Shown: in pieces, positions 1-19,513 of the stretch
Position numbering within the stretch: position 1 is the first letter of the stretch
Layout: every line of letters starts with the position of its first letter
Assembly: GCA_048885535.1 (NCBI GenBank)
Contig: JBHLLO010000053.1
Location: forward strand, 1 to 21,042
From: Candidatus Hermodarchaeota archaeon
Lineage (GTDB): Archaea; Asgardarchaeota; Lokiarchaeia; Sigyniarchaeales; SOKP01
Length of the DNA: 21,042 nt
Direction: 5' to 3'
Translations under genes and position numbers: made by a program
The notes under the pieces: generated by a model
Database searches by the model: none
The model's input: only the letters and a program-made list of their open reading frames with translations
Told to the model about the DNA's origin: nothing

Positions 1-72
1 GTGGCAAGAATAGGTAAAAAAGAGGTTTCTACAATTTTTAAACCAAAAATTCTTAAACAAAAGGAATTATGA
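1..72 (+). CDS. smc: 3' end of a probable SMC-family ATPase (partial)
   Basis: Frame 1 reads VARIGKKEVSTIFKPKILKQKEL*, resembling the last strands of the SMC head (GV...g.S.v..v.l). Its TGA (70-72) overlaps the ATG (69-71) of the scpA-like gene. Only 23 codons are visible, so the call relies heavily on context. Confidence 0.55.
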   Translation: MARIGKKEVSTIFKPKILKQKEL

Positions 73-719
73 TTAATTATACAGATTATTCCAAGGAAAT
101 ACGTAAAAAAATCGAAATCGTAAAAGAAGAAGTCTTATCAGGAAAGCTTAATTTATTAAACCTGGAATTAGACCCCATATTCCAAGATTTAAAGAATACA
201 CTGAATAAATTTAATATTGATATATATTCCTCATTATATAAAGAAGCTTGCCTACTTTTAAAAAATAAATTTGAAGAATTAAAGGCATTCCTTAGACTTC
301 TAGAAAGCGACAAGCTCTTCTTTAAATTCTTAAACTATAATCCAAATGATGATGAAATTGCATCTATGTTCCAGAGTTGTTGGAGAATAGTTTTTAATAT
401 TGAAACAATCTCTATTGACTTTTTGGCAGAAAGTGATAAGAAATATTCTAAACAAAGAAATGATATATTTCAGTTAACACATCTAAAGCAAAAAAAGGTA
501 GATTCTGAATTTTTGTTGGAAATAGCTCAACATAATTTTACAGAAAAGATGTTTCTTTATCTTGAAAGAATCAAAGAAAAATTACCGTGCAAATTTGAGA
601 ATATTTTCGAAGGTGAGAAAGATCAAACAGAAATATTTGAAAATTTCGTATATTTATTGCATCTTCTTCAATTAGGTAGAATTAAATATCAGAAAGAAAC
701 GAAAAGTTTATACATATGA
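69..719 (+). CDS. scpA: ScpA-like kleisin (segregation/condensation protein A family)
   Basis: N-terminal GKLNLLNLELDPIF resembles ScpA g.idpwdidi, and EACLLLKNKFEEL resembles aa.Ll..Ks..L. C-terminal winged helix FENFVYLLHLLQLGRIKYQKE resembles Fl.lL.L...g.v...Q. Confidence 0.75.
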   Translation: MINYTDYSKEIRKKIEIVKEEVLSGKLNLLNLELDPIFQDLKNTLNKFNIDIYSSLYKEACLLLKNKFEELKAFLRLLESDKLFFKFLNYNPNDDEIASMFQSCWRIVFNIETISIDFLAESDKKYSKQRNDIFQLTHLKQKKVDSEFLLEIAQHNFTEKMFLYLERIKEKLPCKFENIFEGEKDQTEIFENFVYLLHLLQLGRIKYQKETKSLYI

Positions 720-731
720 GGAGAATAAAAT

Positions 732-1262
732 ATGAATGAAATATCAATATTAATGCATCTGTTAAGTAGAAGGGATGACTTATATCATATTGGAGCGACT
801 GAAGATCAATTATTAGAAGCATTAAATATAACTTATAAGAACAGAACATTGCATTTTCAAAGTCTAATTACCGAACTATCAAAAATTATTGAACCAATAG
901 GACTTCAAATTAGATTCAACCCATTAAATTCTCATTGGTATATCACATTTGAGCAGGATATCTCAAATATTATTAATTCAAATCCATTTGGAAATCATCC
1001 TAGTTTGGCAGCAACCTTATTTTGTGTATTAGCATGTTGTTTGAAGAATTCAGGATTTTCAACTATTCGGGAAATTCAAAAATTTAGAAGAAAGAAAACA
1101 ATCTTGGAAGATATTAAAAGTTTACAACATAAAGGTTATATTAATTACGATAAAAAGCAAAATCAAGTTTGCCTTACACCTTTAATAGGATATCAGTTAG
1201 ATCTCGAGAAGTTGTTTATAAAATTATCTCTTAAGTTAAAAGAAAAAGAAGAGAAAAAGTAG
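732..1262 (+). CDS. Kite protein (ScpB/Nse1-like tandem winged helix)
   Basis: 176 aa, directly after scpA with a GAGGAG RBS (718-723). WH-A segment LITELSKIIEPIGLQIRF...WYI; WH-B segment LAATLFCVL...STIREIQKFR...DIKSLQHKGYI...VCLTP. Confidence 0.65.
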   Translation: MNEISILMHLLSRRDDLYHIGATEDQLLEALNITYKNRTLHFQSLITELSKIIEPIGLQIRFNPLNSHWYITFEQDISNIINSNPFGNHPSLAATLFCVLACCLKNSGFSTIREIQKFRRKKTILEDIKSLQHKGYINYDKKQNQVCLTPLIGYQLDLEKLFIKLSLKLKEKEEKK

Positions 1263-1266
1263 TTTT

Positions 1267-1902
1267 TTAATGAGATGTAGTTATTATAAGTATCATTTCA
1301 GCGACTCGATTATTATACTTCTCAACTTCATCAAAATTATCTACTGTCTCACCACAAGTAATAAAAATATCCTGTACAATTATTTTTCTTTTGTTAAAAA
1401 AATCGTTAATTTTCTTTTTTAGCTTCTCAATTTCTTTCTCTTTATCTCCTTCTAATAGATCAATCTTGTTTATGCATACATAAATTTTTTCTGGAAAAAA
1501 CCGAACATCATTAAAAAACTCAAATTGACTATCTAAGTCTCTGTCCAAAGAAAAGACAGCTATAATTTGAGTAGCTATACGAGAAATGGTTATAATGCCC
1601 ATTTTAACGACTGCCCTTGACCGATCTCCCCCAGGAGCAAAGATTGTATGTGCTTTACCAGAGGCATCTTCCCTAAACACCACACGATTAGGATGGATAG
1701 TTTTGGTTTCCTTTTCGTCAAGCGTATCAGCCTTATTTCCCCTAGGCACCGTTGCTTCTCCAGAGAAGTCTGTCTTAACTACAGTGGCTTTTAATCCACC
1801 CTCAACTTTTTCGATATCCCCTCGATTTAGGTATCGTACAAATAAACGTAGAATTGAAGTTTTACCAACACTGACATCTCCTAATAATCCAATATTGACC
1901 AT
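1267..1902 (-). CDS. Small GTPase, Ras superfamily (MglA-like, atypical G3)
   Basis: G1 GDVSVGKTS, G2-like KTIHP, G3 position FAPGG, G4 NKID, G5 position TCG. RBS GGAGGGTGA; start overlaps the upstream stop (TAATG). Confidence 0.85.
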   Translation of the reverse strand: MVNIGLLGDVSVGKTSILRLFVRYLNRGDIEKVEGGLKATVVKTDFSGEATVPRGNKADTLDEKETKTIHPNRVVFREDASGKAHTIFAPGGDRSRAVVKMGIITISRIATQIIAVFSLDRDLDSQFEFFNDVRFFPEKIYVCINKIDLLEGDKEKEIEKLKKKINDFFNKRKIIVQDIFITCGETVDNFDEVEKYNNRVAEMILIITTSH

Positions 1903-2714
1903 TATACTTCACCCTCCAATAATTTATTCAATAATAGTTCATAATCAGGAATTAAAAATTGTTCTAAATATGCATTGTTATGTGCTTGAATTAATGCTAT
2001 TAATACCTCTTTTAAATTCTTAGCAGTTTCAGCGTATTTCAAGAGGTCATCTGGAGATGGTTCATTATTGAAATCTCTTGCTTTCTCTTCAAACCCGAAA
2101 TTAGAACGTTCAGGTAGTGAATCAAAAAATCCAAAAGCAGAGTATCCTTGATATTGAAAAAATACAAAAAATCTTGTTTTGATTGATGAGATTACTTTTG
2201 TCAAATAAGCTGATGGATATATTTCACCTAAAATTAACTCATCATCTTGTTCAATAACAAAATATGGAGAGATAGGAGAAACTTGGTTCCCATACATTTC
2301 TTTAGGTGGTAATGAAATGAAAGGCAATTTCTCGGAAACTATTGTCCAGAGATCCTCACGATGCTTTTCTAGTAAAATATCTTTAATTTCATCATAAGCA
2401 AAATAAAAGTCTGATTGTAAAGCAAGAAGTGAGCTTAAATATACAGACAAAGAAGCAAAAGTAGCTTCTAATAAAGGTCTCCTACCCTCATCTGATGCGG
2501 AAGGTTTAACTGCGCCTTTCCACGCTCTAAGACCAGTATATACAAAACCTTTTATATCAAAAAAACTTCCAGAAAGAAAAATAAATGAAGGTACAAAACC
2601 TTGTTCTTTTGTCAATAAATCCCTTGATCTATTTATTAACGATGATTCTAACTTATCATCGTTGAATTTTGAATGAACAACTGGCATTATAAGCCATTTC
2701 TTTTTTTTTGCCAA
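1902..2714 (-). CDS. Hypothetical protein, possible expanded roadblock/MglB-like GTPase partner
   Basis: 270-aa ORF with TTG start, translationally coupled to the GTPase. Its secondary-structure pattern resembles roadblock (see findings). The ORF itself is solid; the fold is inference. Confidence 0.6.
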   Translation of the reverse strand: MAKKKKWLIMPVVHSKFNDDKLESSLINRSRDLLTKEQGFVPSFIFLSGSFFDIKGFVYTGLRAWKGAVKPSASDEGRRPLLEATFASLSVYLSSLLALQSDFYFAYDEIKDILLEKHREDLWTIVSEKLPFISLPPKEMYGNQVSPISPYFVIEQDDELILGEIYPSAYLTKVISSIKTRFFVFFQYQGYSAFGFFDSLPERSNFGFEEKARDFNNEPSPDDLLKYAETAKNLKEVLIALIQAHNNAYLEQFLIPDYELLLNKLLEGEV

Positions 2715-2884
2715 ACTTACAGCACTTCTCTATTTTTATTAAAAATGATATGATTGCTTAATTATTATTTAAATCTATATTTATTAAACAATATATTATC
2801 ATAATATAATTTTTTGCAAATATCTTATATGGAGAATTAAGTTTTTGAAATCATATAGATTACAGAGTAATTTACTTTTTGAAT

Positions 2885-3607
2885 CTAATAAAGAGGTTTT
2901 TTTAATCTTTTTTTTCTAATGAAATAAAATGCAAAAATTATGACTATTACAATTGCAGCGACTAAGAAGATTTCAAAACCAAAATTCTCAGGAGTTACTT
3001 CTATTGGACAAAAAGAATCTGGTGCACAATCTAAGTATTGAGAATTCCCTTCATAAGATGAAGATAAAGCAAACCAAGTGGTGTTATCATAAACCATAAG
3101 GGCTGCTTTAGGGATTGTCGCTTCAATTGTGTAATCCGAAAAGGATCCGATGTTATCAGCTGAAATATTGGAGGAGGTCCAGCCAATAGTGTTGTTCCAA
3201 AATTCAAAACTATATTCCTCTCCAGAAAGAGTATATTTAACGAATATAACTCTAAATCCTGTGCCACTTATATTAGAATAGTAAACACTATACTCAAATA
3301 TGAGATTGCTAGGATTATAATTTTCGAATAAATAAATACTACATTCCATATCATATCCAGTTATATTCCCTAAAAAAGTTACGTTAGTAAATTGATTATC
3401 AAGATTAAGAGAAATATTGATAATATCTAATTGATTATGATCGCTAACTTTATCTATTCTTTCATTTAAAAAATCTATTCGAAAAACATCATTTTCAGGG
3501 TCAGTAAAACTTTCTGTAAGTCCTTTAGCAATTGGAATGTATTGAAATGATGTTATAAATATCATCAGGTAAACAATAAAAAATAAAGGAATTTTCTTTT
3601 TAACCAT
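2885..3607 (-). CDS. Secreted, C-terminally membrane-anchored surface protein
   Basis: Basic plus hydrophobic signal peptide (MVKKKIPLFFIVYLMIFI...AKG). Beta-rich body starting FTDPENDV, with many N-x-S/T sequons (NIS, NVT, NIT, NNT, NTT). C-terminal TM helix followed by RKKRLKK. Confidence 0.8.
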   Translation of the reverse strand: MVKKKIPLFFIVYLMIFITSFQYIPIAKGLTESFTDPENDVFRIDFLNERIDKVSDHNQLDIINISLNLDNQFTNVTFLGNITGYDMECSIYLFENYNPSNLIFEYSVYYSNISGTGFRVIFVKYTLSGEEYSFEFWNNTIGWTSSNISADNIGSFSDYTIEATIPKAALMVYDNTTWFALSSSYEGNSQYLDCAPDSFCPIEVTPENFGFEIFLVAAIVIVIIFAFYFIRKKRLKKPLY

Positions 3608-4308: not shown

Positions 4309-4344
4309 AGTTGTATTAATTAATTTTTGTTAAAAGGAATTAAA

Positions 4345-5214
4345 ATGTATTCAATGATTATTACACCTAGTCCCCTAGATCCGGAAGTCCAAATTCTTTC
4401 AGAAGAATTCAAAAAGATAGGGTATGATATCCAATATTTTATCCCATCAAAGTTTATAGCTAAAATTAGTATTAGTAGTTTCGAATCTCAATTTAAAAAT
4501 CTTGAGCCAAGAGCGGCATTAGTGAGAGGTTTTGGAGCGGCTCAAACTCAAAAGATATTTTTTAGGTTAGATTTATTAAGTGCTATTGAAGAATATAATA
4601 TTAAACTGATTAATTCTAGAGAATCACTAGAGATTGCAAGTGATAAGTTCCTAACGTCTCTCTTTTTGGAAAAAAACAATGTATCGACACCGAAAACAAT
4701 AGTCTGTGAAGATCCTAGTGATGCCTTATCTTCTTTTGAGGAATTGGGAGGAGATATTGTCCTAAAGCCTCTTTATGGTTCTCGTGGAGTTGGCATAACA
4801 AGATTAAACGATAGGGGATTTGCTGAAAATGTTATCAATACTTTAGGTCAATTGAATGAGATTTTCTATTTACAAGAATTTATCGAACATTATAATCGAG
4901 ATATTCGAATTTTGGTTTTAGGAGAAAAAGTAATTGCAGGTATGTATAGGGTGAGTAATAATTGGAAAACCAACATTCATGCGGGAGCTAGAATGGAACC
5001 TATAGAACTAACATCTGAAATGAAGAAATTAGCAATTAAAGCTGCTAAAGTTACTAAAACAGAAATAGCAGGAGTAGATATAGTAGAAAGTGAAAGAGGG
5101 CTGTTAGTTTTAGAAGTTAATTCGATACCTGGATTTACTGCTTTACAAAAAGTCACAGATATTAATCTTGCGGAAGAAATTGTAAAATTTTTTCTAAAAA
5201 AGGCATCAAGTTGA
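4345..5214 (+). CDS. RimK-family ATP-grasp alpha-L-glutamate ligase (MptN/CofF-like)
   Basis: ASDKF, VLKPLYGSRGVGI, YLQEFI, RDIR, WKTNIHAGA, GVDI and LEVNSIPGF motifs. The ATG at 4345 follows AAGGA and is preferred over the ORF-track start at 4327. Confidence 0.92.
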   Translation: MYSMIITPSPLDPEVQILSEEFKKIGYDIQYFIPSKFIAKISISSFESQFKNLEPRAALVRGFGAAQTQKIFFRLDLLSAIEEYNIKLINSRESLEIASDKFLTSLFLEKNNVSTPKTIVCEDPSDALSSFEELGGDIVLKPLYGSRGVGITRLNDRGFAENVINTLGQLNEIFYLQEFIEHYNRDIRILVLGEKVIAGMYRVSNNWKTNIHAGARMEPIELTSEMKKLAIKAAKVTKTEIAGVDIVESERGLLVLEVNSIPGFTALQKVTDINLAEEIVKFFLKKASS

Positions 5215-5221
5215 AATCTTT

Positions 5222-5243
5222 AAATAAAACAAAAAAAAGAAAA
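5222..5243 (-). terminator. Oligo-T tract between convergent genes
   Basis: A-runs on + (T-runs on -) downstream of the 5259 stop. Confidence 0.35.
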
Positions 5244-5258
5244 TTAATGATTTTGGAT

Positions 5259-5606
5259 TTATAACTCTTCGATTAACCCAATTATTGCAGCAATAATTAC
5301 CAATAGACAAGCTATAATTCCTGCCCCAAAAATCGCAAGTAAGACTCCAAAAATAAACAATAGAAGCCAGTGGAAAGGAATCGGATTATTAGGTCTAATT
5401 CCAACTAATAATGTTACTATTACTACTCCTAATCCAATAATTAAAACAACTAATGGGTAAAAAAGGTATGGAATTATTCTATAACCCTCTATAAACCCTA
5501 GATTTGCTAAAGATGCAAAACCAGAAATAATATATACTAAACCGACTAAACCTCCGATAATTACCAAGAATTTCATAATTTTTTCGTTTTTATAATGTTT
5601 CACCAT
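5259..5606 (-). CDS. Small integral membrane protein (about 4 TM)
   Basis: Almost entirely hydrophobic segments. Probable start is the ATG at 5606, behind GTGATGA; the ORF track begins at 5618. Confidence 0.7.
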   Translation of the reverse strand: MVKHYKNEKIMKFLVIIGGLVGLVYIISGFASLANLGFIEGYRIIPYLFYPLVVLIIGLGVVIVTLLVGIRPNNPIPFHWLLLFIFGVLLAIFGAGIIACLLVIIAAIIGLIEEL

Positions 5607-5785
5607 TCGAATCATCACATTTTTTTTATTTAATAAGATAGATTATCTAAAATTTAATAATTTCATTACAGAAATATTATTTTTATAAGTTTCTCTTTTA
5701 ATTTGGCAATAACGTTTTTAGAATTTTTATACATATTTGATGAATAAGATTAACCTTATTTACTTTTAATTATAATCTATTAAAT

Positions 5786-6649
5786 ATGACTTTCTCAATT
5801 GTTGCTTTTGATCCTAAAAAGAAGGAATGGGGTGTTGCTGTTCAATCTAAATTTGTTGCTGTGGGAGTTATTGTTCCATTTGCTAAAGCTAACGTAGGAG
5901 CAATAGCAACGCAAGCCCATGCAAATACTAGTTATGGTCCAAAAGGACTCAATTTACTTGAAAAGGGTTTTACAGCTGAAGAAACAATTAAAGAGTTAGT
6001 AGAAGAGGATGAACTAAAAGAACAAAGACAGCTTGGGATTGTGGATGCAATCGGAAATACTGCAGCTTTTACTGGAAGGAAATGTTTTGATTGGGCAGGC
6101 CATTTAATTGGAAAGAATTATACCTGTCAAGGAAATATTTTAGCTTCAAAAAGTGTTGTAAAAGCTATGGCAGAAGCTTTTGAGAATACAAAAGAAGATC
6201 TAGTTGAGAAACTTTTCGCTGCTTTAGAGGCTGGTCAAAAAGAAGGAGGGGATAAAAGGGGAAGAGAATCTGCAGCAATATTAATAGTAAAAGAGAAAGG
6301 AGCTTACGATGGTGGAACAGATAGATATATTGATATTAGGGTTGATGAGCATCCAACTCCTATTAAAGAATTACGTAAAGTTTTTGAAGTTTATGATATG
6401 TGCATTCTTCTTAGAGATGATCCAAAGGATATAATTAAATTAGAAGGAGAACCCATGAAAATAGTAAAAGAGCGGTTAAAAATCGATGGTTTTTATAAAG
6501 GAGAAATTAATGATTTATATGATAACAGAACAAGAGAAGCTTTAAGCGATTGGTTAGGTACAAACAATTTTGAAGTTAAAGAGAGAGACGATGAATATAT
6601 GTGGGGCTCTGTTTTTAGATATATTCTAAATTTAAGAAATAAAAATTGA
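5786..6649 (+). CDS. DUF1028 family protein (Ntn-hydrolase-like) with C-terminal PG-binding-like helical domain
   Basis: MTFSIVA...WGVAVQSKF, GAIATQA, RQLGIVD, AFTG, QGNIL, GGDKRGRESAA, DIRVDEH..PI.EL. Confidence 0.92.
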   Translation: MTFSIVAFDPKKKEWGVAVQSKFVAVGVIVPFAKANVGAIATQAHANTSYGPKGLNLLEKGFTAEETIKELVEEDELKEQRQLGIVDAIGNTAAFTGRKCFDWAGHLIGKNYTCQGNILASKSVVKAMAEAFENTKEDLVEKLFAALEAGQKEGGDKRGRESAAILIVKEKGAYDGGTDRYIDIRVDEHPTPIKELRKVFEVYDMCILLRDDPKDIIKLEGEPMKIVKERLKIDGFYKGEINDLYDNRTREALSDWLGTNNFEVKERDDEYMWGSVFRYILNLRNKN

Positions 6650-6740
6650 AATTATTTTTTCAGTTTGTTCATTTTAATTTGATCTCTATAATATCTGGAT
6701 ATTTCCCAACTTAAAATATCGACCTTTAAGTTATAATGTT

Positions 6741-6914
6741 GTGATAGAAGAGAAAATTATGAAGTATCGGAATGATTTAGAAGCAGCAAGAAGATTGGCA
6801 AAGAATAGATTTGCAAATCAGGTATATTATGAACAAATGAGTATTAAATTAGAACGATTGCTTAAATTTTATGAAAATCTAAGAATTTGGAATGAGTTCT
6901 CTAATAATAAGTAA
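6741..6914 (+). CDS. Small hypothetical protein (57 aa), absent from the ORF track
   Basis: GTG...TAA reads MIEEKIMKYRNDLEAARRLAKNRFANQVYYEQMSIKLERLLKFYENLRIWNEFSNNK; alternative ATG at 6759. It fills most of the gap between DUF1028 and maf. Confidence 0.6.
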   Translation: MIEEKIMKYRNDLEAARRLAKNRFANQVYYEQMSIKLERLLKFYENLRIWNEFSNNK

Positions 6915-6931
6915 GTCCTAATTTTATTTAA

Positions 6932-7540
6932 TTAGTGTTTATTAAGTAAATTGAAGTTAAAATGTTCTTTTAAAATTGTATAAATTTTAAATAATGGTAA
7001 TCCGATAACATTAGAAAATGAACCATTAATTGATTTTATAAATATATTTGCTTTGTTATTTATTGAATAAGCTCCTGCTCTTCCTTTCCATTCCCCAATC
7101 TTAATATAAGACAGAATCTCTTCATCAGATAATTTCCCAAAATGAACAATTGTTTGTTCAAAGTCAACAATTACTTTTGGAGATAAAGTATCTACAATAG
7201 CTATTCCAGTTAGTAGATTATGTTGTCTATTTTGCAATGATTTTAAAATTTGGAAAGCATTCTCTTCATTTGCTGCTTTTCCAATTATTTGACCATCACA
7301 CTCAACAATTGTATCAGCAGCTATGATAATGGCATTTAAACCTTCCTTTAATATTAACTTTTTAACATATAATGCTTTTGCTTTTGCTAGTTCTGTAATT
7401 AATTTTGTTGGGACATTGATGTTTTTCTTAAACTTATCCTCATCAATATTAGCAACTTTAATCTCAAAAGGAATTTTCGCTCTCTTTAAAATTTCGTGTC
7501 TATCCCTTGATTGAGAAGCTAATATTATTTTTTTTTGCAA
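6932..7540 (-). CDS. maf: Maf family nucleoside triphosphate pyrophosphatase
   Basis: IILASQS.DR, LAKAKA, IIAADTIV...IIGK, H..LTG, GEWKGRAGAY, I.GS..NVIGLP. Confidence 0.93.
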   Translation of the reverse strand: MQKKIILASQSRDRHEILKRAKIPFEIKVANIDEDKFKKNINVPTKLITELAKAKALYVKKLILKEGLNAIIIAADTIVECDGQIIGKAANEENAFQILKSLQNRQHNLLTGIAIVDTLSPKVIVDFEQTIVHFGKLSDEEILSYIKIGEWKGRAGAYSINNKANIFIKSINGSFSNVIGLPLFKIYTILKEHFNFNLLNKH

Positions 7541-7676
7541 AATTGAATTGATTTTTCTAAAGTTTTGTATATATTTTAATTAATAAATAATGCTATTTGA
7601 AGATATTAAAGATTTAAATTATTAATCAAATAAATTAATTTAATATAGCTATGAAATTAATAAGATAGATATATTT

Positions 7677-8774
7677 ATGATTGAGTTCTCTATATGGTTC
7701 ATATTTTTAACTTTTTCTTATGTTTTAGTTTTATATTTATTTTTGCATTTTTCAAACAAAAAAGAAAAGGTAAATAACTTAATTGGATTTGGAGCATTAT
7801 GTGTTGTTTTTATTCATTTATTAGTTATTTTTATCCTTATGTTTCAAGATACTTCTCTTCATTTAGATCTGATTCCACTATGGTTTTTTTCATTAGGATT
7901 GCCAATATTAATTTTATTTACAGTAGTGCTTATTTCTTCTTCATTAGAACTTATAATTAATCATTTATTCAGGTCTGGATGGCTAAAGCATTTCTATGTA
8001 AAAATAGAAGAGAAATTAAGAATGAGAAGCAAAGCGAAAAATGATTTCTATCGTAAGGTTCCTCATGTTTTGATGTTTATTGGTATCTTCATTTTATGGT
8101 TGTTGGGAGTCTATATTATTTATTCCGCAGTTGGAACTACTGAAGGGATGATTCCATACGAAAATAATATGCTTTATCTTTACCTACAAATTCTAACTAT
8201 GCCAAACATAATTCGTGATGTATTATTTGCTTTAGGCTGGTTTTATTATCTACTCTTCTTCTTTTTCTATATATTTGCATTAATTATGCTAACCAATGAA
8301 TTTACTCGAAAATCTCGATATGTAAGTTTCCCCAGTAACTTTCTCTCTACTATACTTCTCAATAAAGATGAGAAGCAAGGTTATGGTACATATCTTTATT
8401 TTGCTGTCGGTCATATGTTTGCAGCTTTAATTTGCCCTCCAATGGTTTTTCTTTCAATTTTAGGGATTAGTACTATAGCTGATCTAATCACCAGTCAAAT
8501 TGGGATAAGATATGGGAAATATCATATAAAATTTAACAAAGAAAAAACTTGGGAAGGAACAATTGCTGGTTCAGTGGCAGCTTTTTTAGTGAGCTTTCCT
8601 TTTATAGGTCATATATGGGCTTTAATATTTGCTTTTTTATTCTTATTTCTTGATGTCTTAACAGAGAAGCCAGTTAAAGTATCGGATAATTTAGTCTTTC
8701 CGATAGCCTTATCAATTATTTATTTTGTTATAAGATTTGTATTAAATTTAAACTATTACACTCTTATTGGCTAA
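7677..8774 (+). CDS. Dolichol/phytol kinase-like CTP-dependent membrane kinase (paralog 1)
   Basis: RKVPH, ADLITSQIGIRYGK, KTWEG and DNLVFP motifs; multiple TM helices. Confidence 0.8.
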   Translation: MIEFSIWFIFLTFSYVLVLYLFLHFSNKKEKVNNLIGFGALCVVFIHLLVIFILMFQDTSLHLDLIPLWFFSLGLPILILFTVVLISSSLELIINHLFRSGWLKHFYVKIEEKLRMRSKAKNDFYRKVPHVLMFIGIFILWLLGVYIIYSAVGTTEGMIPYENNMLYLYLQILTMPNIIRDVLFALGWFYYLLFFFFYIFALIMLTNEFTRKSRYVSFPSNFLSTILLNKDEKQGYGTYLYFAVGHMFAALICPPMVFLSILGISTIADLITSQIGIRYGKYHIKFNKEKTWEGTIAGSVAAFLVSFPFIGHIWALIFAFLFLFLDVLTEKPVKVSDNLVFPIALSIIYFVIRFVLNLNYYTLIG

Positions 8775-8777
8775 AAA

Positions 8778-9809
8778 ATGTTGTATTTAACGACTAGTAT
8801 TATTTTAATTGGATACTCATTAACAACATTAATTTATGTTATATCAAATTGGAGGGATAAAGTTAAAAAAGGGTTAGTTGCTAATGAATTAGCTATTGTA
8901 TTATTATTTCTTTTAGCAGGGATATTATTTCCTTATATGTACCAATATCATTCAGCATCATTGCCCTTAGAGACTTTATCTTTATTATGGTTAATTACAT
9001 CGATTATTTTTTTGATTGAGATGGGTTGCTTATTTATTATTTTGATTTATAATACAATAATTTCAAAGAAGAATCCCCATCTCATGGCAGAGAGGAATTA
9101 TAGTAAATATTGCGCTGAGTTTAATCAAAAGTGGAATGATGATTTAAAAAGTGAACGCGGAAGGAAATTATTACATCTATTTACAAGTTCTATTATTTTC
9201 ATTTTCTGGGGTTTAGGAACTATATTAGATATTTTTGGTATATTAGATAAAATTTATCTTGATAATTATAGTTTCTCATACATGCTTATTGTTGTAACGG
9301 GATTTGCCTTTATCTTTATGTTTCAGATTGCAGATTTGGCACGTTTAAATAAATTTTATATGTTACCAAATTGGGCTAGAAAATGGTATTTATCTATGAG
9401 ACAAGAGGAGCAAGAAACATTCTTAGCCTCCACCCCATTAGTATTATCCTTTGTTCCTTTCATTTTTGCTCCTTTCCCTATATTTGCTGCTGTGGCTTTA
9501 ATTGCTACGGGTGCAGATGCCATGGCATGTATTATTGGAAAAAAATATGGAAAACATTCACTTAGAAAAAATTCAAAAAAAACTATTGAAGGATTTTTAG
9601 CGGGTGGAATAAGTACATTCTTAATAGTTATTGTTATATTTAATCTTTACCATGCATGGATGCCAATTGACCAAATAAAGATAATTTTAATGGCATTAAT
9701 AGCTACAATTATGTTTTTATTTGTTGATATGTTTGCAAAATATATATCTGATAATATTTTGAATCCGGTTTTAACGGGATTAGGAATGTGGTTAATCTAT
9801 TTAGTTTAA
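8778..9809 (+). CDS. Dolichol/phytol kinase-like CTP-dependent membrane kinase (paralog 2)
   Basis: RKLLHL, DLARL, ADAMACIIGKKYGKH, KKTIEG and DNILNP motifs; multiple TM helices. Confidence 0.85.
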   Translation: MLYLTTSIILIGYSLTTLIYVISNWRDKVKKGLVANELAIVLLFLLAGILFPYMYQYHSASLPLETLSLLWLITSIIFLIEMGCLFIILIYNTIISKKNPHLMAERNYSKYCAEFNQKWNDDLKSERGRKLLHLFTSSIIFIFWGLGTILDIFGILDKIYLDNYSFSYMLIVVTGFAFIFMFQIADLARLNKFYMLPNWARKWYLSMRQEEQETFLASTPLVLSFVPFIFAPFPIFAAVALIATGADAMACIIGKKYGKHSLRKNSKKTIEGFLAGGISTFLIVIVIFNLYHAWMPIDQIKIILMALIATIMFLFVDMFAKYISDNILNPVLTGLGMWLIYLV

Positions 9810-9820
9810 GAGATGAGAAC

Positions 9821-10114
9821 TTAGCCACCAAAGTAAAGATATAAAAAAGCTATGTCATCACCATCTTTTAATATAGTTTCTAGAAATTTATCATCACGAT
9901 AACTTATCCCATTAACAATTATTGACAAAAAAGAGCTAAATTGTACTGGGTTTTTTTTATCCCATAATAGTTCTTTGAATTTTTCCCCATATTTTTCATA
10001 GAAATATTCTAATAAAGCTTGTAAGGTGATTTCTTTTTCAAGCTTAACAATCTCAGTAGTTTTTTTGGTAACCTCATTGAATGGTGGTTCATATCGAAGT
10101 TTTAAAGAGATCAT
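9821..10114 (-). CDS. MoaD/ThiS/SAMP family ubiquitin-like protein
   Basis: Beta-grasp pattern ITLQALLE, IIVNG, LKDGDDIAF, and a C-terminal GG. Confidence 0.9.
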   Translation of the reverse strand: MISLKLRYEPPFNEVTKKTTEIVKLEKEITLQALLEYFYEKYGEKFKELLWDKKNPVQFSSFLSIIVNGISYRDDKFLETILKDGDDIAFLYLYFGG

Positions 10115-10288
10115 CTATATTACCTCTGATAAATTAATAAGAATAGTACTTAGGATTCATAAATCATCAAAAATATAAATTTATTTTGGAAATAAAAAAT
10201 AAAAGTGAGATTTTTATTAAAAAATTAATAAGTAGGTTATAAAACTAAATAAGATAATTGCTTAAATGTATTTAGTGAGGTATTGAAG

Positions 10289-11305
10289 ATGGCTCAAATC
10301 CTTTTTATTTCAGAAAGAACCATACGAGATGCTTGGCTCTCTGCTTTAGCTCAAGTTCTATTTAATGGAGATGATATCAAAACGGAATATGATAAAATAG
10401 GGGATCTTCCCTCTAGAGATGCAACAGCAATGATAGAAGTCAAAGAACCAATGAGAGATCCTATTATGAGAAAAGATAAGGTAATGAAAATTACTTCTAA
10501 ATATGGAAACTCATATGAAGTATATGGGTGTGTGGCTGATACTTACCTAGTTGGATCTATTCAAAGTGGATATATAGAGGAAATCTTACAAGGTGTAAAC
10601 GATCATTATATTTGGGATTCAGATGTAAGTTTTCCTTATTCATATCATGATAGAATCTTTAATTATTCCCCCTTTTCTCTTGAAGATACGATTCATGTTG
10701 ATTATGATTTAGAAATTGTAGAAGCAAAATTTGTAAAAGAACATAAAAAGTTAATCAAGGCAAATAAAATTGTAAAAACTGAAGAGGGTTTAATATGGAA
10801 ACTAAAAAATCTTGTAGATTTTAGTCTTGAGAAAAAGATTTCTAATCAAATTGGCGTAGATAAAATCCCTATTGGAGTTTTAACTTTTCCAAGAATTAAT
10901 CAAATAGAATATATAATCCAAAAGTTAAAAGAAAAACCACATTCTCGGAGGGCTCAAGCTATAACCTGGAGACCTTTAGTAGATCCTTTTCACGTAGATC
11001 CTCCCTGTCTTCAAAGAATCTACATGCGAGTTAAAGATGGAAAACTTTTAATGCAAACTACTTGGAGGAGTAGAGATTTATTCAGAGCATGGGAAGCTAA
11101 TGTAAATGGAATGATCAGAATCCAAAAACTAGTAGCTGATGAGTTAGGAGTTGAATTAGGCCATTATTTAGATTTCAGTAACTCATTACATATTTATGGA
11201 AATACTATTTCAGAAGTTACCGATATGTTTAATCGTATGAGAAATAGAGGTGAAAAATTTCCTTCTGAAGTTGAGACGCTTCTGGAAAAGTATATGAGGA
11301 ATTAG
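10289..11305 (+). CDS. thyA: Archaeal-type thymidylate synthase (ThyA fold) with insertions
   Basis: YSYHDRI, NQI.YII.KL, SRRA.A.TW, PPCLQ (catalytic Cys), RSRD...AW.AN, SLHIY. ATG at 10289 behind GTGAGG. Confidence 0.88.
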   Translation: MAQILFISERTIRDAWLSALAQVLFNGDDIKTEYDKIGDLPSRDATAMIEVKEPMRDPIMRKDKVMKITSKYGNSYEVYGCVADTYLVGSIQSGYIEEILQGVNDHYIWDSDVSFPYSYHDRIFNYSPFSLEDTIHVDYDLEIVEAKFVKEHKKLIKANKIVKTEEGLIWKLKNLVDFSLEKKISNQIGVDKIPIGVLTFPRINQIEYIIQKLKEKPHSRRAQAITWRPLVDPFHVDPPCLQRIYMRVKDGKLLMQTTWRSRDLFRAWEANVNGMIRIQKLVADELGVELGHYLDFSNSLHIYGNTISEVTDMFNRMRNRGEKFPSEVETLLEKYMRN

Positions 11306-12078
11306 TTATTAAAAATCTTTGGAAAAACATTTTTTGTATTCTTAAAGATTTGTTCTTCTAACTCATTAATTGGAATATTCTTTAACTTTGAAATGGAATT
11401 TAAAACTTCTTTAATCATGGCAGGAGTTCCCACCTTTCCTGAATATTCGACAGGTCCATCACTTTCTAATAATAAATGTTCTGCATCAACCATTAAAACT
11501 GTTTTTTTCACAGCTGGAGAATAATTAATTGCGGGTGTGATAGAAAAGTAATAACCTGTATCAATACCTAATTTTATAAGATTTTCTGGTCCTGAATACC
11601 AATGAATATTAACATTGGGAATATCATATGATGTTAATGAGTCAAAAACAATTTGTTCTGCCCCCTTACTGTGAATAATTACAGGTAATCTTAACTCTTG
11701 AGCTAGCTTTAGCATACGTAAAAATATTTTTTTCTGTAAAGGATACAGTTCTGAGTCCTTGACAAAGTAATGATCTAGCCCTATTTCCCCAATTGCTACA
11801 ATTTTTTCTTTATTTGAAATTATAAAACTCTCTATTGAATTTAGCTGGTCTTTGATCTTATTATTCATTTTTACTTCCTCAGGATGTATTCCAAGTGCGG
11901 GGTAAATAGCATCAAATTGTTGGGAAATTGCTAAAACTCTTTCCTGACTTATAGCACTCATTGCAACTGCTATAATTTTTTCAACTCCAAGAACAAAAGC
12001 TTCTTTTACAATATCTTCAATTGTTAAATACAGATTTGCATGACAATGCACATCTATTAATATATTTTTCACCCTCAC
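11302..12078 (-). CDS. tatD: TatD family deoxyribonuclease/hydrolase
   Basis: IDVHCH, ALGIHP, AIGEIGLD, LPVIIHS, HWYSG, LLLESDGP. Confidence 0.95.
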   Translation of the reverse strand: MRVKNILIDVHCHANLYLTIEDIVKEAFVLGVEKIIAVAMSAISQERVLAISQQFDAIYPALGIHPEEVKMNNKIKDQLNSIESFIISNKEKIVAIGEIGLDHYFVKDSELYPLQKKIFLRMLKLAQELRLPVIIHSKGAEQIVFDSLTSYDIPNVNIHWYSGPENLIKLGIDTGYYFSITPAINYSPAVKKTVLMVDAEHLLLESDGPVEYSGKVGTPAMIKEVLNSISKLKNIPINELEEQIFKNTKNVFPKIFNN

Positions 12079-12107
12079 AAATTTTGAGATGATTTAACTC
12101 AGACAAC

Positions 12108-12443
12108 TTATAATCGGCTAATTTCCGCTCTTAAATCGACAATTTTTTTTACTAATTGGAATTTTCCTTTAGGATATGATTTTGTATCTAAATATTTCAT
12201 TAAACTTTCTAATTCCTTTATTAAGTAATTTTTTATATCTTCTTTAGTCACATGTCCTAAAAGTTTTGGTAAAGGCTCAATTTTTTCTGCACGTTTGATT
12301 CTCAGATCAGAGATGGCTTTCGCTAGTTGTGCCTGAAATCCTTTAGATTCCGAAATATCTGTACCACCAAGCATGTCTAAAGAAGTCTTTAGACCATCAA
12401 TAAATGCCTCTAAGTCCTTTATCTCAATTTCATCATTAGTCAT
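12108..12443 (-). CDS. Hypothetical helical protein with an internal two-fold repeat
   Basis: 111 aa; KGFQAQLAKAISDLR versus KGKFQLVKKIVDLR. Confidence 0.7.
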   Translation of the reverse strand: MTNDEIEIKDLEAFIDGLKTSLDMLGGTDISESKGFQAQLAKAISDLRIKRAEKIEPLPKLLGHVTKEDIKNYLIKELESLMKYLDTKSYPKGKFQLVKKIVDLRAEISRL

Positions 12444-12533
12444 TTATAAAGAAAACAGTGTGAGTTAATATCTTATATCCTAGAAAGATATTTCATATAT
12501 ATATTTCTTTATATTTCTAATGAGAGGAAGAAT

Positions 12534-13286
12534 TTATGCAAATTCATCAAAAAATAAAGCGGCAAGAGTAGATATAACTTTCTTTCTTAGGTGTTCATTA
12601 TAAATTCGAACTTTGTCTGAAAATTCTATTTGCATGGTTTGACTATTTTCTATATTGTTCGCTCCATATTTTTGAGTGATATAACCTCCTTTGAGAGCAT
12701 ATTCTTTTCTTCTTTGATGCCCTGGAGCAATGGAGATTCCTACATTTATAAATGTTTTAATTATTTTTCCTCGTATATTATGTCCCCATAATCTTTTGGG
12801 TATAGGTGCAGAAAATAGAGTTTCCAAATTATTAGTACCTAATATGATATCTACATCACGATAACCCAAAGGTATATCTTTCTTTTCGAATCCATGTATA
12901 TCAATCATGATAGAGCGATTAAATCGTTTTAAATTATAATGAATTAATTCTTCTATTTTATTGTGATAATTTTGGTAAATTTGGCCAGCTAAAATGGACG
13001 TAACATCGTATGCTTCTGATTCTATTCTATTAAGATCAATTTTACTCCTATGGATTTTAGATAAGATGTAAGATGGTCCTTTTTTGGCTGATCCTTTTGA
13101 TTGGTATATATCTTCAATCGATTTAATTAACTCAAAAGCCATACTTATTGTTTTCTTATCCGCCCCAATAATTCCTTCCGTTCTGGTAGGGATTTCTTCA
13201 ATTTTTATTTTACCCCCATGAGATATTGATAGAATAAGAGGAATGTTTCCCTTATGGTATTCTATAAACTTTCCAAAAAATTCCAT
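12534..13286 (-). CDS. N-formylglutamate amidohydrolase-like protein
   Basis: PLILSISHGG, R.KIDLNR, Y..YH, IDIHG, DIILGT, GGYIT, MQIE. Confidence 0.8.
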   Translation of the reverse strand: MEFFGKFIEYHKGNIPLILSISHGGKIKIEEIPTRTEGIIGADKKTISMAFELIKSIEDIYQSKGSAKKGPSYILSKIHRSKIDLNRIESEAYDVTSILAGQIYQNYHNKIEELIHYNLKRFNRSIMIDIHGFEKKDIPLGYRDVDIILGTNNLETLFSAPIPKRLWGHNIRGKIIKTFINVGISIAPGHQRRKEYALKGGYITQKYGANNIENSQTMQIEFSDKVRIYNEHLRKKVISTLAALFFDEFA

Positions 13287-13348
13287 TATTGAACCAAATT
13301 TTTGAAAATTTGAAATAAATAAAAAAGTTAAGATTTTAGAAAATTTTA

Positions 13349-13798
13349 TTATGTAATTGTTAACATTCTAAGTATCATGAAAACACCTAACCATATTAGA
13401 AATCCACAAATACCAAAAATATAATACGCCCAAATATTCTTCTCTTTTACAAAAATTAAGTAGCAAATTAACCAAGAGCTAAGACCTCCAATAGCTCCCA
13501 TTAGAAGATCAGTAGTTATATTTTCCCAACTATCTACTCTACCTTCAAATTTCCAACCTAGATCAATAAATAGGGTATTTTCAAAGACTTCCCATAATAC
13601 TATTATTACCATAGTGCAAATGAAGACGAATAATAAAGAGAAGATAGGAATTTTACCTTTATTTTTTGGAATTGTATAAAACAAAGAAAAGAATAAAAAA
13701 ACACCAATGCCAAAACATATATGTCCAATCGAATAGAAATCAAACCAAGCTATTCCAACCATATCAGGATCAGTTGCAATTAAATCTACAAACAACAT
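13349..13798 (-). CDS. Membrane protein, DUF2585/VanZ-like
   Basis: About 4 TM helices with conserved-looking polar motifs D.YS.GH..FG, WEVFEN and DS..N...D. Confidence 0.65.
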   Translation of the reverse strand: MLFVDLIATDPDMVGIAWFDFYSIGHICFGIGVFLFFSLFYTIPKNKGKIPIFSLLFVFICTMVIIVLWEVFENTLFIDLGWKFEGRVDSWENITTDLLMGAIGGLSSWLICYLIFVKEKNIWAYYIFGICGFLIWLGVFMILRMLTIT

Positions 13799-13984
13799 AT
13801 TTCTTTCACATTTGATTTTCTATCTAATTCATTTTTATAATTAATATTTTTTTAAAAGAATATTTCTAAAATAATAATACTGTTCATTTAATATAATGTT
13901 ATTTTGAGTTAATTCTTGAAAAAAAGTATTGCATTAGGTGTATTTTATCAAAAAGAATACTTAAAATCAAAAGAATTAGATGAT

Positions 13985-14785
13985 TTATTCTGATATGTAA
14001 TAAGTCTTTCCTTCCTTTTTTATAAATCCCTCATCTTCTAAAGCATGTAGAATGTTCTTTATTTTGTCAGAGTCTTTACTAACTTCTTTAAAAATTTCAG
14101 TTTCCTTTATGCTTTTTTCTTTAAGTATCAATTTTAAAACTTTTCCTCGAATCTCTCTACTAGAACCTTTGAATTTAGTCTGTTTCCTGTAATTAGTACT
14201 TTTTTTATGTAGTTCTGGATATCTTCTCTTAAGCATAACACCATAATCCATTAAAGCATAATACCAATCTCTAGGATTAGAAGTATCCAACGTTTTTTCA
14301 ACTAATTCTAGTATTTCTTTATCAGAGATTAATTTTTTATCCTGAAAGAAGAAGTGTATATATACTCTTCTAATATTAGTTTCGATAAAGACGGTAGGGA
14401 TATTAAACGCAAAGGTTATTATCGATGAGGCTGTATTATGACCAATTTGGGGAAAAGATTTTAGAATATTGATATCTTCAGGTAATTTACTATCGTAATT
14501 GTTAACTACGGTTTCAGCTATATTTTTTAATGCAAGAGCCCTTCTATTGTAGCCTAAACCCTGCCAGATTTTTAAGATATCGTTAATCTGAGCGTTTGCT
14601 AATGCATTAAAGTTCGGATATTTATCGATAAATTCTAAGAACTTCTCGGCAACCCTACTTGTTTGAGTTTGCTGAAGCATTATTTCCGATATTAAAACTT
14701 TATACGGATTTATATCAGTCCTAAAAGGAAAATTTCTTCCCGATCTTTTGTAGTATGAATAAATAATTTTTTGGAATAGTCTCAA
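13985..14785 (-). CDS. mutY: MutY-like A/G-specific adenine glycosylase (HhH-GPD), lacking the 4Fe-4S motif
   Basis: PY.VLISEIMLQQTQ..RV, W.GLGYNRRA, FPQIGHNTA, ETNIRRV, ALMDYG. The reading frame is open to 14845, and the true start may be the ATA at 14842. Confidence 0.9.
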   Translation of the reverse strand: MRLFQKIIYSYYKRSGRNFPFRTDINPYKVLISEIMLQQTQTSRVAEKFLEFIDKYPNFNALANAQINDILKIWQGLGYNRRALALKNIAETVVNNYDSKLPEDINILKSFPQIGHNTASSIITFAFNIPTVFIETNIRRVYIHFFFQDKKLISDKEILELVEKTLDTSNPRDWYYALMDYGVMLKRRYPELHKKSTNYRKQTKFKGSSREIRGKVLKLILKEKSIKETEIFKEVSKDSDKIKNILHALEDEGFIKKEGKTYYISE

Positions 14786-14906
14786 TATATATTTTGTTAA
14801 ACCCTCTCTTTTGTAAATTTTGTGAAAATCGTGGATAAGTATATCTTAACACCTTTATTGATTTGGATTAGAAAGGAAATGGTGAAAAAAGAAATTAACT
14901 ATTTTC

Positions 14907-14928
14907 AAATATAAAGATCTTTATATTT
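14907..14928. promoter_or_regulatory. Perfect 22-bp palindrome containing TATA-like boxes
   Basis: AAATATAAAGATCTTTATATTT is its own reverse complement and lies upstream of mutY. Confidence 0.5.
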
Positions 14929-14939
14929 TTCAAACGAAG

Positions 14940-16850
14940 TTATTTGGTAATATCAAACGCAAATTCTGTAATCCCACCCTCAATTTTTTTTAAGGTTAAA
15001 TTGTATCCAGCAGTGTCGATCAAATGAAGCATCGATTTGTTTTCAAGTAAAATAGTTCCCCCAAACGTTCTATAATTCAATTCTCTTCCAATTTTCACTA
15101 AATAATTTAATAAAAATCGGGTGATTCCCAAATTTCTCCAATCTTTGCGTACAACAAATGCCAATTCTGCAAAAGTTGGTTCTATAGTTTTGAAAAAACC
15201 ACCTAAAGCAATGATTTTAGATTCCTCTTCTTCTTTATACTCTCCAACTAATATCATATCTGTGGTGTAATCAATATTAATCATTGGTTGGATTTTTCTG
15301 TGGCGAAATTCTCGAATTGGTGTGAAAAATCTTAAATATCTATCTTTATCATCAAGTGAATAATGAAGTTCTTGAATCATTCTTTCATCTGTTGGTTTCA
15401 CTGGTCTAATTATAATTCTTTTCTCATTTTTTAAAGTTAATTTTGTTTCATATTTTTCAGGGTAAACAGCAATTCGACCGTCGATAGAAACTGGGAGTTT
15501 TTGATCTGAGTATACATATTTCCACTTCTTGGCATGATCTAATAGTTCTTCTCGGAAGTCCGGATGGGCAATACTTATCATTTCTAATACTCTTTCTCTA
15601 ATACTTTTTCCATAGAGATATGCGATTCCCCATTCAGAAATAATATAATGCACATCTCCACGAGTAACTACAACTCCTGAGCCTTGTTGAAGGTAAGGAA
15701 CGATTCTTGAAACTATTCTGCCATCTGATAAAGTTGCCGTGGAAGGAACCACCATTATTGGTTTTCCTTCCTTTGATCTTCCTGCTCCTCGAACAAAATC
15801 AACTTGACCCCCAATCCCACTATAAAGTTGGGGACCTAAGGAATCAGCGTTAATTTGGCCAGTTAAATCTACAGTCAGTGCTGCATTAATTGCAACCTGC
15901 TTTCTATTTTGCGAAATAATGAAAGGATCATTAGTATATTCACAAGGATGAAATTCAACCATAGGATTATCATCACAGAAGTCATATAATCTCCTTGTAC
16001 CCATAACGAAAGAGCAAATAATCTTATCTTTATGTATTGTTTTTTTTTTACAAGTAACTACTCCTTTTTCAACGAGATTTACTATCCCATCCGAAAAAAC
16101 TTCACTATGTACACCTAGGTCTTTTTTTCCTTCTAATTCAATGGTAACCGCATTCGGAATGGTCCCGATTCCCATCTGGATTGTAGATTCATCTTCAATT
16201 AACGAGGCTACAAATTCTGCTATCTTCTTTTCAGATTCATTTGGAGTACCATAATCAAATTCAATAATATCATGATCAGATAGTACATATGCGTCGATAT
16301 CATCCATATGTATAAAAGAATCTCCTAAAGTACGAGGCATCTTGGGGTTTATTTCAGCAACAACAAAATCTGCAGCTTCAGCTATAGATTTGACAATATC
16401 CACATTAATTCCATAACTACAGAAACCATATCTATCTGGTGGGCTTACTTGAATTAAAGCAGTGTCCAAATGCATTCTTCCAAGCTTAAATAACCAGGGA
16501 ATTTCAGATAAAAGCATGGGAGTATAATCAGCTTGGCCTGCTTTAACATATTTCCTTAGAGATTTCCCTATAAAAAAGGCATTATGTCTAAATAAATCTT
16601 CAATTCCTCCTGCAGTTTCATAATAATCAAGATCACTCAAACTTAAGAAATGCAATATCTCTACATCTGGTAATTCTGGTCCAAGTTCAATTAATTTCTT
16701 TGTTAATTCTATTGGTTCAGCACATCCAGAATCAATAAATATCCGATCTCCAGGATTTATAAATTTTCGAATTGCCTTATCAATTGAGACTTTTTTTTTG
16801 CTATATTTTTTCAATAAGGTTTGAATATCATCTTTGTTATTAATTCGCAT
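14940..16850 (-). CDS. Acetyl-CoA hydrolase/4-hydroxybutyrate CoA-transferase fused to a C-terminal GNAT domain
   Basis: ALIQVSPPD.YG.CS.G, N..MPRT.GD, Q.GIG.IPNAV, DLGVHSE, VDLTGQ..ADS, SGIGGQVDF.RGA. GNAT part has IRP...D, YLRFF and AELAFVV..DW...G. The ATG at 16850 follows GGATGA; the ORF track starts at 16862. Confidence 0.93.
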   Translation of the reverse strand: MRINNKDDIQTLLKKYSKKKVSIDKAIRKFINPGDRIFIDSGCAEPIELTKKLIELGPELPDVEILHFLSLSDLDYYETAGGIEDLFRHNAFFIGKSLRKYVKAGQADYTPMLLSEIPWLFKLGRMHLDTALIQVSPPDRYGFCSYGINVDIVKSIAEAADFVVAEINPKMPRTLGDSFIHMDDIDAYVLSDHDIIEFDYGTPNESEKKIAEFVASLIEDESTIQMGIGTIPNAVTIELEGKKDLGVHSEVFSDGIVNLVEKGVVTCKKKTIHKDKIICSFVMGTRRLYDFCDDNPMVEFHPCEYTNDPFIISQNRKQVAINAALTVDLTGQINADSLGPQLYSGIGGQVDFVRGAGRSKEGKPIMVVPSTATLSDGRIVSRIVPYLQQGSGVVVTRGDVHYIISEWGIAYLYGKSIRERVLEMISIAHPDFREELLDHAKKWKYVYSDQKLPVSIDGRIAVYPEKYETKLTLKNEKRIIIRPVKPTDERMIQELHYSLDDKDRYLRFFTPIREFRHRKIQPMINIDYTTDMILVGEYKEEEESKIIALGGFFKTIEPTFAELAFVVRKDWRNLGITRFLLNYLVKIGRELNYRTFGGTILLENKSMLHLIDTAGYNLTLKKIEGGITEFAFDITK

Positions 16851-16922
16851 ACAATCATCCATATAAAATAGGATTTTAATTGTTTTAAATCCGATCGTAA
16901 TGAGAAATTAAATAATTTAAAG

Positions 16923-19508: not shown

Positions 19509-19513
19509 GAAGT

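Follow-up and report, generated by a model that had tools for sequence, protein, structure and literature searches.

Overlapping genes for an atypical GTPase and a predicted roadblock-class partner protein in one order of Lokiarchaeia

The gene pair, its linkage and its distribution

We analyzed a 21,042-nucleotide stretch of DNA (the window), which is contig JBHLLO010000053.1 of Candidatus Hermodarchaeota archaeon (GCA_048885535.1), designated contig C53 of a 3.09-Mb genome that is 91.6% complete. The minus strand of the window carries a gene for an atypical P-loop GTPase of 211 amino acids (aa) and, directly upstream of it, a gene for a 270-aa protein without known family, which we call A270 (Table 1). 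A preliminary description of the same DNA had read the two open reading frames (ORFs) as overlapping by TAATG, and this overlap is present: the stop codon of A270 occupies t1904-a1902 and the start codon of the GTPase a1902-g1900, giving an overlap of one base. The A270 ORF begins with TTG, the next in-frame ATG being codon 10, and its Lys-rich N-terminus is conserved at the protein level in relatives. Database searches at E ≤ 1e-3 returned 219 homologues of A270 and 642 homologues of the GTPase. Wherever these were named they were from Asgard archaea, and the named homologues of both proteins carried Promethearchaeota or Lokiarchaeota labels. Because of these numbers of homologues, the two ORFs are, on sequence grounds, genuine genes and not chance ORFs. 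The spacer upstream of the A270 gene contains a TTTAAATA word that is a possible archaeal promoter for the pair.

To describe the linkage of the two genes, we examined 50 loci, which comprised the 30 best-scoring loci of a search of the phylum (including that of the window) and 20 loci picked for divergence from three families of the order, f1, f3 and f4. The GTPase gene lay directly after the A270 gene on the same strand in 49 of the 50 loci, and the gap between the two was -4 to +3 bases in 45 of these 49 and 17-63 bases in the remaining four. The exception was genome G161 (L060, G161:C49, 466-8012), where a stretch of ~6 kb with three plus-strand ORFs (557, 201 and 635 aa), probably an insertion, splits the pair. 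A purine-rich word resembling a Shine-Dalgarno sequence was found 5-17 bases before the GTPase start in 46/49 loci, counted with a permissive word set and no shuffle control. The two convergent genes that follow the pair in the window are retained beside it only within f1; both are gone in f3 and f4, and the pair stays. In the window, the GTPase gene ends 4 bases from the second of them.

Distribution was counted in 400 genomes of the phylum, of which 154 belong to the order (families f1 to f4 and the window's own genome). A270 was matched in 138 of the 400 genomes, and all 138 were among the 154 of the order: 120/134 in f1 plus the window's genome, 14/14 in f3, 3/4 in f4 and 0/1 in f2, a family represented by a single genome that is 66% complete. 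None of the 246 genomes in other families of the phylum contained A270. Thus, the conserved synteny that had been expected held as adjacency of the two genes and failed as a feature found across Asgard genomes. GTPase orthologues followed a similar pattern (f1 121/134, f2 1/1, f3 14/14 and f4 3/4). Weak relatives of the GTPase (E 1e-11 to 1e-16) occurred in 18/22 genomes of family f16 and in three genomes of families f32 and f33. The f16 relative, a 193-aa protein with the motif YGTGGHQ, had no partner gene upstream and was rejected as a member of such a pair. These results indicate that the pair is a near-universal, single-copy trait of one Lokiarchaeal order, and not of Asgard archaea at large.

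Family f3 also contains a second GTPase paralogue of 207-208 aa that keeps FAPGGD (L056, 3182-3808, minus strand; L057, 3041-3664, plus strand). It is adjoined by a protein of 250-334 aa; no A270-like neighbour of this paralogue and no second copy of A270 were found in those genomes.

Table 1. Features of the window and of related loci (coordinates are those of the window unless a locus is named)
Feature	Position	Strand	Basis or remark
Atypical P-loop GTPase gene, 211 aa	1267..1902	-	ORF; G1 GDVSVGKT, G4 NKID, G3 FAPGGD in place of DxxGQ
A270 gene, 270 aa	1902..2714	-	ORF; without known family; homologues and confident model
TAATG stop/start overlap, A270 to GTPase	1900..1904	-	sequence reading
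Shine-Dalgarno-like GGAGGGTGA in last codons of A270	1909..1917	-	6-14 bases upstream of GTPase start
Spacer upstream of A270 gene, AT-rich, 170 bases	2715..2884	-	contains TTTAAATA word at 2773..2766; read from sequence
240-aa ORF between X194 and A270 genes	2885..3607	-	hydrophobic N- and C-terminal segments; no Pfam match
X194 gene, 194 aa	3681..4265	-	neighbour counts; N-terminal coiled-coil-like helix, C-terminal part alpha/beta-looking
216-aa ORF	69-719	+	convergent with GTPase gene; no significant Pfam match
176-aa ORF	732-1262	+	convergent with GTPase gene; no significant Pfam match
Possible sister module, L053	705-1947
Possible sister module, L055	736-1926
Possible sister module, L082	1501-2746
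Possible sister module, L085	287-1471
Possible sister module, L086	697-1689

The GTPase, A270 and their predicted complex

When 20 diverse GTPase orthologues were compared (alignment A3, 68% mean column identity), the G1 motif GxxSVGKT and the G4 motif NKxD were invariant, as was a G3 motif that reads F-A-P-G-G-D in 20/20 proteins. Whichever Gly is taken as the Gly of DxxG, this G3 has neither the Walker-B Asp nor a catalytic Gln or His. Switch I is long and contains two invariant blocks, DFSGE and KETKTIHPNR; a Lys rather than an Arg precedes the Thr of the G2 region, and an invariant Arg follows five residues later. Since G1, NKxD and this Thr do not vary, the protein arguably needs to bind nucleotide and probably to cycle.

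The best Pfam family was GTP_EFTU (PF00009) in 20/20 orthologues (best E 3.6e-7), although the window's own GTPase scored 20.3 bits, under the cut-off of 26.5. A few database homologues do bear a precomputed PF00009 label. Weaker matches were to DO-GTPase2 (15/20), Roc (9/20, best E 0.016) and Gtr1_RagA (8/20, best E 0.009). Members of GTP_EFTU have the G3 motif DxPGH, and their G domain is followed by the beta-barrel domains II and III. The GTPase resembles them in the spacing of G1 and NKxD and in the P-G pair of its G3; unlike them, it has neither domain II nor domain III, being a 211-aa protein of one domain, and it lacks the G3 Asp and His. A profile search of the PDB gave eEFSec first (E 6e-4), the other rows being weak translation-factor and Rab entries. 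In the ESM Atlas, the neighbours outside the protein's own clusters, which scored 0.91, were G-domain clusters labelled PF03029, Ras, Arf and Gtr1_RagA, and we treat them as leads only. Ordinary Rab-like GTPases of the window's genome matched the GTPase-family profile at E of at least 4e-5.

A270 is also highly conserved, with a mean column identity of 80% among 23 members (alignment A1), and identity drops to 42-58% in the order's two more distant families. It had no match in Pfam or NCBIfam, and 32 diverse members had none in Pfam. A sequence search of the PDB found no relative, and the ESM Atlas gave no usable match. A profile search against 1.84 billion representatives returned 25 proteins only, all of them members of the same family or fragments, with no distant relatives. 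One divergent member of the family, P0247 (297 aa), has an N-terminal CxxC...CxxC zinc-ribbon extension (Zn_ribbon_8, E 9e-4).

The fold class of A270 became visible only through structure prediction. An initial AlphaFold2 fold based on 23 sequences at 70-92% identity had a predicted local distance difference test score (pLDDT) of 54.3 and was set aside. The model used here was built from an alignment of 32 sequences that included divergent members from other families, and it reached a mean pLDDT of 82.5 and a predicted template modelling score of 0.82. It consists of a short strand (12-15), a helix (20-34), a hairpin (44-51 and 57-64) and a long helix (81-116), then an insert (117-150) made of a helix (120-128) and a low-confidence loop, a second hairpin (151-156 and 160-165), strands 182-188 and 191-197, helices 221-229 and 234-246, strand 252-255 and a final helix (258-266). 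This agrees with the order of secondary-structure elements that the preliminary description had read from the letters. The roadblock/LC7 fold has the order alpha1-beta1-beta2-alpha2-beta3-beta4-beta5(-alpha3), in which alpha2 and the terminal helices sandwich an antiparallel sheet. In two VIA-align runs, the top 50 rows were all of the roadblock/GAF/longin/profilin class, and when the top 1000 Foldseek chains were re-examined, the roadblock 3kye_A (6.8) and the Myxococcus MglB 6hjm_J (6.7, 122/124 residues) came first. The core of A270 (approximately residues 14-249) is therefore predicted to be an enlarged roadblock/GAF-class alpha/beta domain, which the C-terminal helix 258-266 would follow.

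We then predicted the complex of the GTPase (alignment A3), in the presence of GTP and Mg, with A270 (alignment A2) as the scored partner. The interface score ipSAE was 0.73 (0.76, 0.73 and 0.70 in the individual runs), and the best of three controls scored 0.00; a confident 1:1 interface, which had been named earlier as a check of the idea, was thus obtained. The pass mark was reached by 116/157 solved complexes and by 2/215 mismatched pairs, counts that are only approximate here since our own alignments were used and GTP and Mg were present. Contacts agreed by at least 86% between runs, and the pLDDT of A270 was at least 79. It is unlikely that the pair passed through sequence memory, because the PDB contains no sequence relative of either protein.

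In the predicted complex, the GTPase contacts are at residues 43-53 (the DFSGE strand), 67-73 (the G2 block), 86 and 88 (in beta3, with the Phe that stands where a Walker-B Asp would be) and 96-111 (the switch-II helix). Those of A270 are at residues 50-56 (hairpin loop), 91-109 (long helix), 136-140 (an invariant PP.EM loop), 187-192 (hairpin) and 258-266 (C-terminal helix), and in the pairs of lowest error the switch-II helix packs on the long helix as well as on the C-terminal one. Column entropy was lower in the interface than in the rest of both proteins (A270, 0.66 versus 1.21; GTPase, 0.30 versus 1.16), and as low a value was found in 1/10000 and 0/10000 random subsets, respectively. 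These models predict that A270 binds the switch face of the GTPase through its alpha2 side, in the manner of the roadblock/LC7 protein MglB. None of the three outcomes that the preliminary description had listed as grounds against its reading (a different fold class, no confident interface, no synteny in relatives) was observed, and that reading is supported in part.

Neighbouring genes, a possible sister pair and a nucleotide-blind G domain

A third gene, X194, lies directly upstream of A270 in 15 of the 20 divergent loci. It is one gene away from the pair in the window, lies downstream of the GTPase gene in locus L038 and is missing from the three f4 loci. Strong matches to X194 were found in 118/134 genomes of f1 and 13/14 of f3; those in other families were weak (E 1e-6 to 1e-12) and were attributed to the coiled coil without inspection of the matches. 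The spacers between X194 and A270 are approximately 100-125 bases long, so coupling is looser than within the pair. Searches of Pfam and the PDB gave no match to X194. The possibility that it is itself a roadblock protein or a relative of A270 was rejected, as hhalign gave a probability of 0.3% against roadblocks and 0.2% against A270. We conclude that X194 is probably a third member of the module.

The 240-aa ORF that separates X194 from A270 in the window was found by tblastn at 51-100% identity in 10 of the 30 best loci, including the window, and at ~26% in two more. This ORF appears to have entered the cluster as a lineage-specific insertion. A cluster of 181-216-aa neighbours was observed in f4 and L038; its motif resembles that of a Mut7-C-type nuclease, a tentative assignment that was set aside. 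The 216-aa and 176-aa ORFs beyond the GTPase gene may be ScpA/ScpB-type proteins, which they resemble. The rest of the window (4327-21042) encodes ordinary housekeeping functions, including a RimK-type ATP-grasp protein, DUF1028 with PG_binding_2, Maf, a thymidylate-synthase-like protein and TatD, an HhH-GPD glycosylase, an acetyl-CoA hydrolase/transferase fused to GNAT, and peptidases of families M48 and U32.

Outside the order, a possible sister pair was found in three genomes of f32 and f33 and in three metagenome contigs. In five of these six loci (L053, L055, L082, L085 and L086), the gene for a GTPase of 178-187 aa is directly preceded by that for a partner of 206-223 aa; the partner in L086 is a truncated ORF of 145 aa, and the sixth locus, L084, was used in the alignment only. 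The sister GTPases have a G3 of Y/F-G-T-G-G-H and match the GTPase-family profile at E about 1e-12. On the partner side, hhalign of alignment A2 against the six sister partners gave a probability of 8.5% (E 0.004) with a colinear match over 157 columns (A270 43-262), and an R-x-W-(K/R)-G word after the first hairpin is common to A270 and the sister partners. These similarities are suggestive of a relationship between the A270-GTPase pair and a pair in two other Asgard families.

Within the window's genome, the GTPase profile had one further strong match, the N-terminal domain of an 828-aa protein (L079, G000:C106:481-2967, minus strand), the first 200 residues of which matched at 1.2e-52. This G domain has lost G1 and NKxD and has kept KETKTIHP.R and FAPGGD..RAVVKMG.IT.SRIA, the switch-I and switch-II blocks that are predicted to bind A270. 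It is followed by a SIR2_2 domain (1.6e-9) and then by TPR repeats. Among the matches listed, 4/120 homologue clusters had the N-terminal G domain, and the others share the SIR2-TPR part.

Comparison with known systems and possible functions

The closest functional parallel is MglB-MglA of Thermus and Myxococcus, a Roadblock/LC7 protein with a Ras-like GTPase (PDB 3t12, 3t1r, 6hjm and 6izw). PMC3199381 describes MglB as a roadblock dimer that binds beta2*, beta2, beta3 and alpha2 of MglA through its two-helix (alpha2) side and contributes no catalytic residue. In MglA itself, according to the same paper, TxxGQ replaces DxxGQ, switch I is extra-long and there is an intrinsic arginine, Arg53. 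The pair described here shares with MglB-MglA a regulator gene that comes first and a GTPase gene that comes second in tight coupling, a GTPase without the Walker-B Asp and with a long switch I, and, in the predicted complex, a contact of the regulator's alpha2 side with beta2/beta3, the switch-II helix and the additional strand of switch I, in line with what that paper describes. In contrast, there is no sequence similarity on the regulator or the GTPase side, and A270 is approximately twice the size of MglB. A single A270 chain would contribute alpha2 plus its own C-terminal helix where the MglB dimer contributes two alpha2 helices, from which we infer a 1:1 instead of a 2:1 complex. As far as the predictions reach, the module would work like MglB-MglA, whereas membership judged by sequence fails on both sides.

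Other systems resemble the pair less. Rag proteins have a roadblock domain fused to the G domain, where it mediates dimerization rather than switch binding. Here, each of the two proteins has its own gene, and the contact is predicted to lie on the switch face; the likeness to Rag/Gtr GTPases with their Ragulator/LAMTOR roadblock proteins and to Asgard Rag-like GTPases (references PDB 8yl2 LokiRagO, 9m28, 6nzd, 3cpt and 6u62) consists of the Gtr1_RagA matches noted above, which are far below significance. Canonical Asgard roadblock/LC7 proteins (PF03259; Thor-RB, 7f8m) are 94-152 aa long and are recognized by Pfam, unlike A270. According to a survey of 74 GTPases of the cultured strain MK-D1 (PMC10933270), the genes for GTPases and those for roadblock/longin proteins do not as a rule share operons, and the A270-GTPase operon differs in this respect from what is described there.

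We consider it on balance probable that the two proteins form a stoichiometric G-protein module in which the roadblock-class A270 sits on the switch face of the GTPase as its dedicated regulator. The two genes would be co-translated by means of the stop/start overlap and the ribosome-binding word inside the upstream gene. A270, as a single-chain enlarged roadblock-class domain, would grip the switch face by alpha2 (91-109), the C-terminal helix (258-266) and two hairpin loops, and the GTPase would present the extra switch-I strand (43-53), the G2 region (67-73), beta3 and the switch-II helix (96-111). A270 would most likely be a regulator that fixes the switch conformation without supplying a catalytic site, acting either like a GTPase-activating protein (GAP), as MglB does, or as a clamp of one nucleotide state. 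The genes are coupled, co-distributed and conserved, and the fold class and the interface are predicted; the direction of regulation (GAP, guanine nucleotide exchange factor (GEF) or effector) and the cellular process are what we infer beyond this.

Several observations weigh against this regulator model. A Foldseek search of the PDB with the A270 model gave nothing at E ≤ 1e-3, and the weak rows above that value included profilin, PYL, Maf1 and YbjN. The Robl_LC7 (PF03259) profile matched 0/32 A270 members at E ≤ 1, and when alignment A2 was compared by hhalign with 13 of the 18 PF03259 matches of the window's genome, the probability was 0.3%. The preliminary description had anticipated a protein too divergent for standard profiles. 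On the GTPase side, the G3 is F-A-P-G-G rather than T-x-x-G-Q, with a Gly at the place of MglA's catalytic Gln, and among Pfam families GTP_EFTU comes closest, whereas neither Ras nor Arf was among those matched by the 20 members at E ≤ 0.1. Because GTP_EFTU was the best family and yet weak, Ras and Arf had no match and the Rab-like GTPases were distant, the GTPase is, by sequence, its own lineage of TRAFAC GTPases and belongs to neither MglA nor Rag, contrary to the kinship that had been proposed for it. Finally, the interface is itself predicted, switch regions that are conserved in any case would give the same conservation score with any binding partner, and the predictor uses the same alignments.

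The same evidence can be read in other ways. A270 might be an exchange factor, or a permanent structural subunit; in the latter case the GTPase, without Walker-B Asp and switch-II Gln, may barely hydrolyse GTP and would serve as a nucleotide-dependent or constitutive assembly factor in a fixed heterodimer with A270, possibly a heterotrimer with X194. We regard this as rather unlikely, though it draws on several findings. The invariant F-A-P-G-G, the extreme conservation of both proteins and the third conserved neighbour gene would fit it, as would translational coupling, which is consistent with 1:1 stoichiometry. Roadblock/longin proteins are also GEFs or scaffolds, and chains of Mon1-Ccz1, Ragulator and TRAPP are among the fold matches of A270. 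Moreover, the SIR2-TPR paralogue without G1 and G4 keeps the switch-II segment, indicating that the surface can persist without nucleotide binding. However, the operon GTPase retains G1, NKxD and the G2-region Thr without exception, and MglA, which also has no Walker-B Asp, still cycles (PMC3199381). Nothing in our analysis separates a GAP, a GEF and a scaffold.

It is much less probable that A270 is a GAF- or LuxR-type sensor domain that relays the occupancy of a small molecule to the GTPase. The short strand before helix 1 and the six main strands of the model would suit such a domain, and we take the layout of strands and helices to fit the GAF topology as well as that of a roadblock. Nevertheless, 0/32 A270 members matched GAF or Autoind_bind in Pfam, and LuxR/GAF targets were covered over 131-133 of 162-233 residues, compared with 119/120 and 122/124 for roadblock targets. 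Surface conservation is highest on the helix that would hold the GTPase in the predicted complex and not around a pocket, and the gene order and the type of partner parallel mglB-mglA. Least probable of all, and in our opinion very remote, is a common operon whose products do not bind each other, the interface being an artefact that arises from surfaces conserved together. Two chains can be juxtaposed by a predictor, and a pass supports binding and does not show it; yet the three controls gave 0.00 against 0.70-0.76, and the stop/start-overlapping pair is held across three families while other neighbours change.

The regulator model can be extended to a joint account, which as a whole we think distinctly improbable, more so than the exchange-factor or subunit explanation and somewhat less so than the sensor. 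The module would be an Asgard-specific, self-contained switch in which a single A270 chain, with alpha2 and the C-terminal helix, replaces the two-helix platform of the MglB dimer on a GTPase without Walker-B Asp and catalytic Gln. X194 would be its third subunit, and the sister pair would make the module older than the order. The nucleotide-blind G domain on the SIR2-TPR protein would engage the same surface of the partner and thereby link the switch to an NAD-consuming effector.

A literature search that excluded subscription journals and closed supplements found no description of the pair, and the passages of PMC12962969 that were examined contain none either. The pair is thus an undescribed, order-restricted G-protein module, probably with a third subunit. 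The preliminary description had suggested that it bears on the origin of eukaryotic GTPase regulators, a bearing that is weak because the pair sits in one order only. Since it is confined to a single order of Lokiarchaeia and has, at most, a faint sister pair outside it, the distribution argues for a lineage innovation and not for evidence on the ancestry of eukaryotic Rag/Ragulator or longin regulators, and there is no demonstrated link of the module to these. Its interest lies in the archaea themselves. Asgard genomes contain dozens of small GTPases and of roadblock/longin proteins, and it is difficult to tell which of them form cognate pairs. The pair described here is an exception: it is single-copy, order-wide and highly conserved at its predicted interface, and the genome itself names the partner. 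It is a directly testable case of Asgard G-protein regulation with a rewired GTPase catalytic loop, and it could show how an MglB-type platform is built from one chain.

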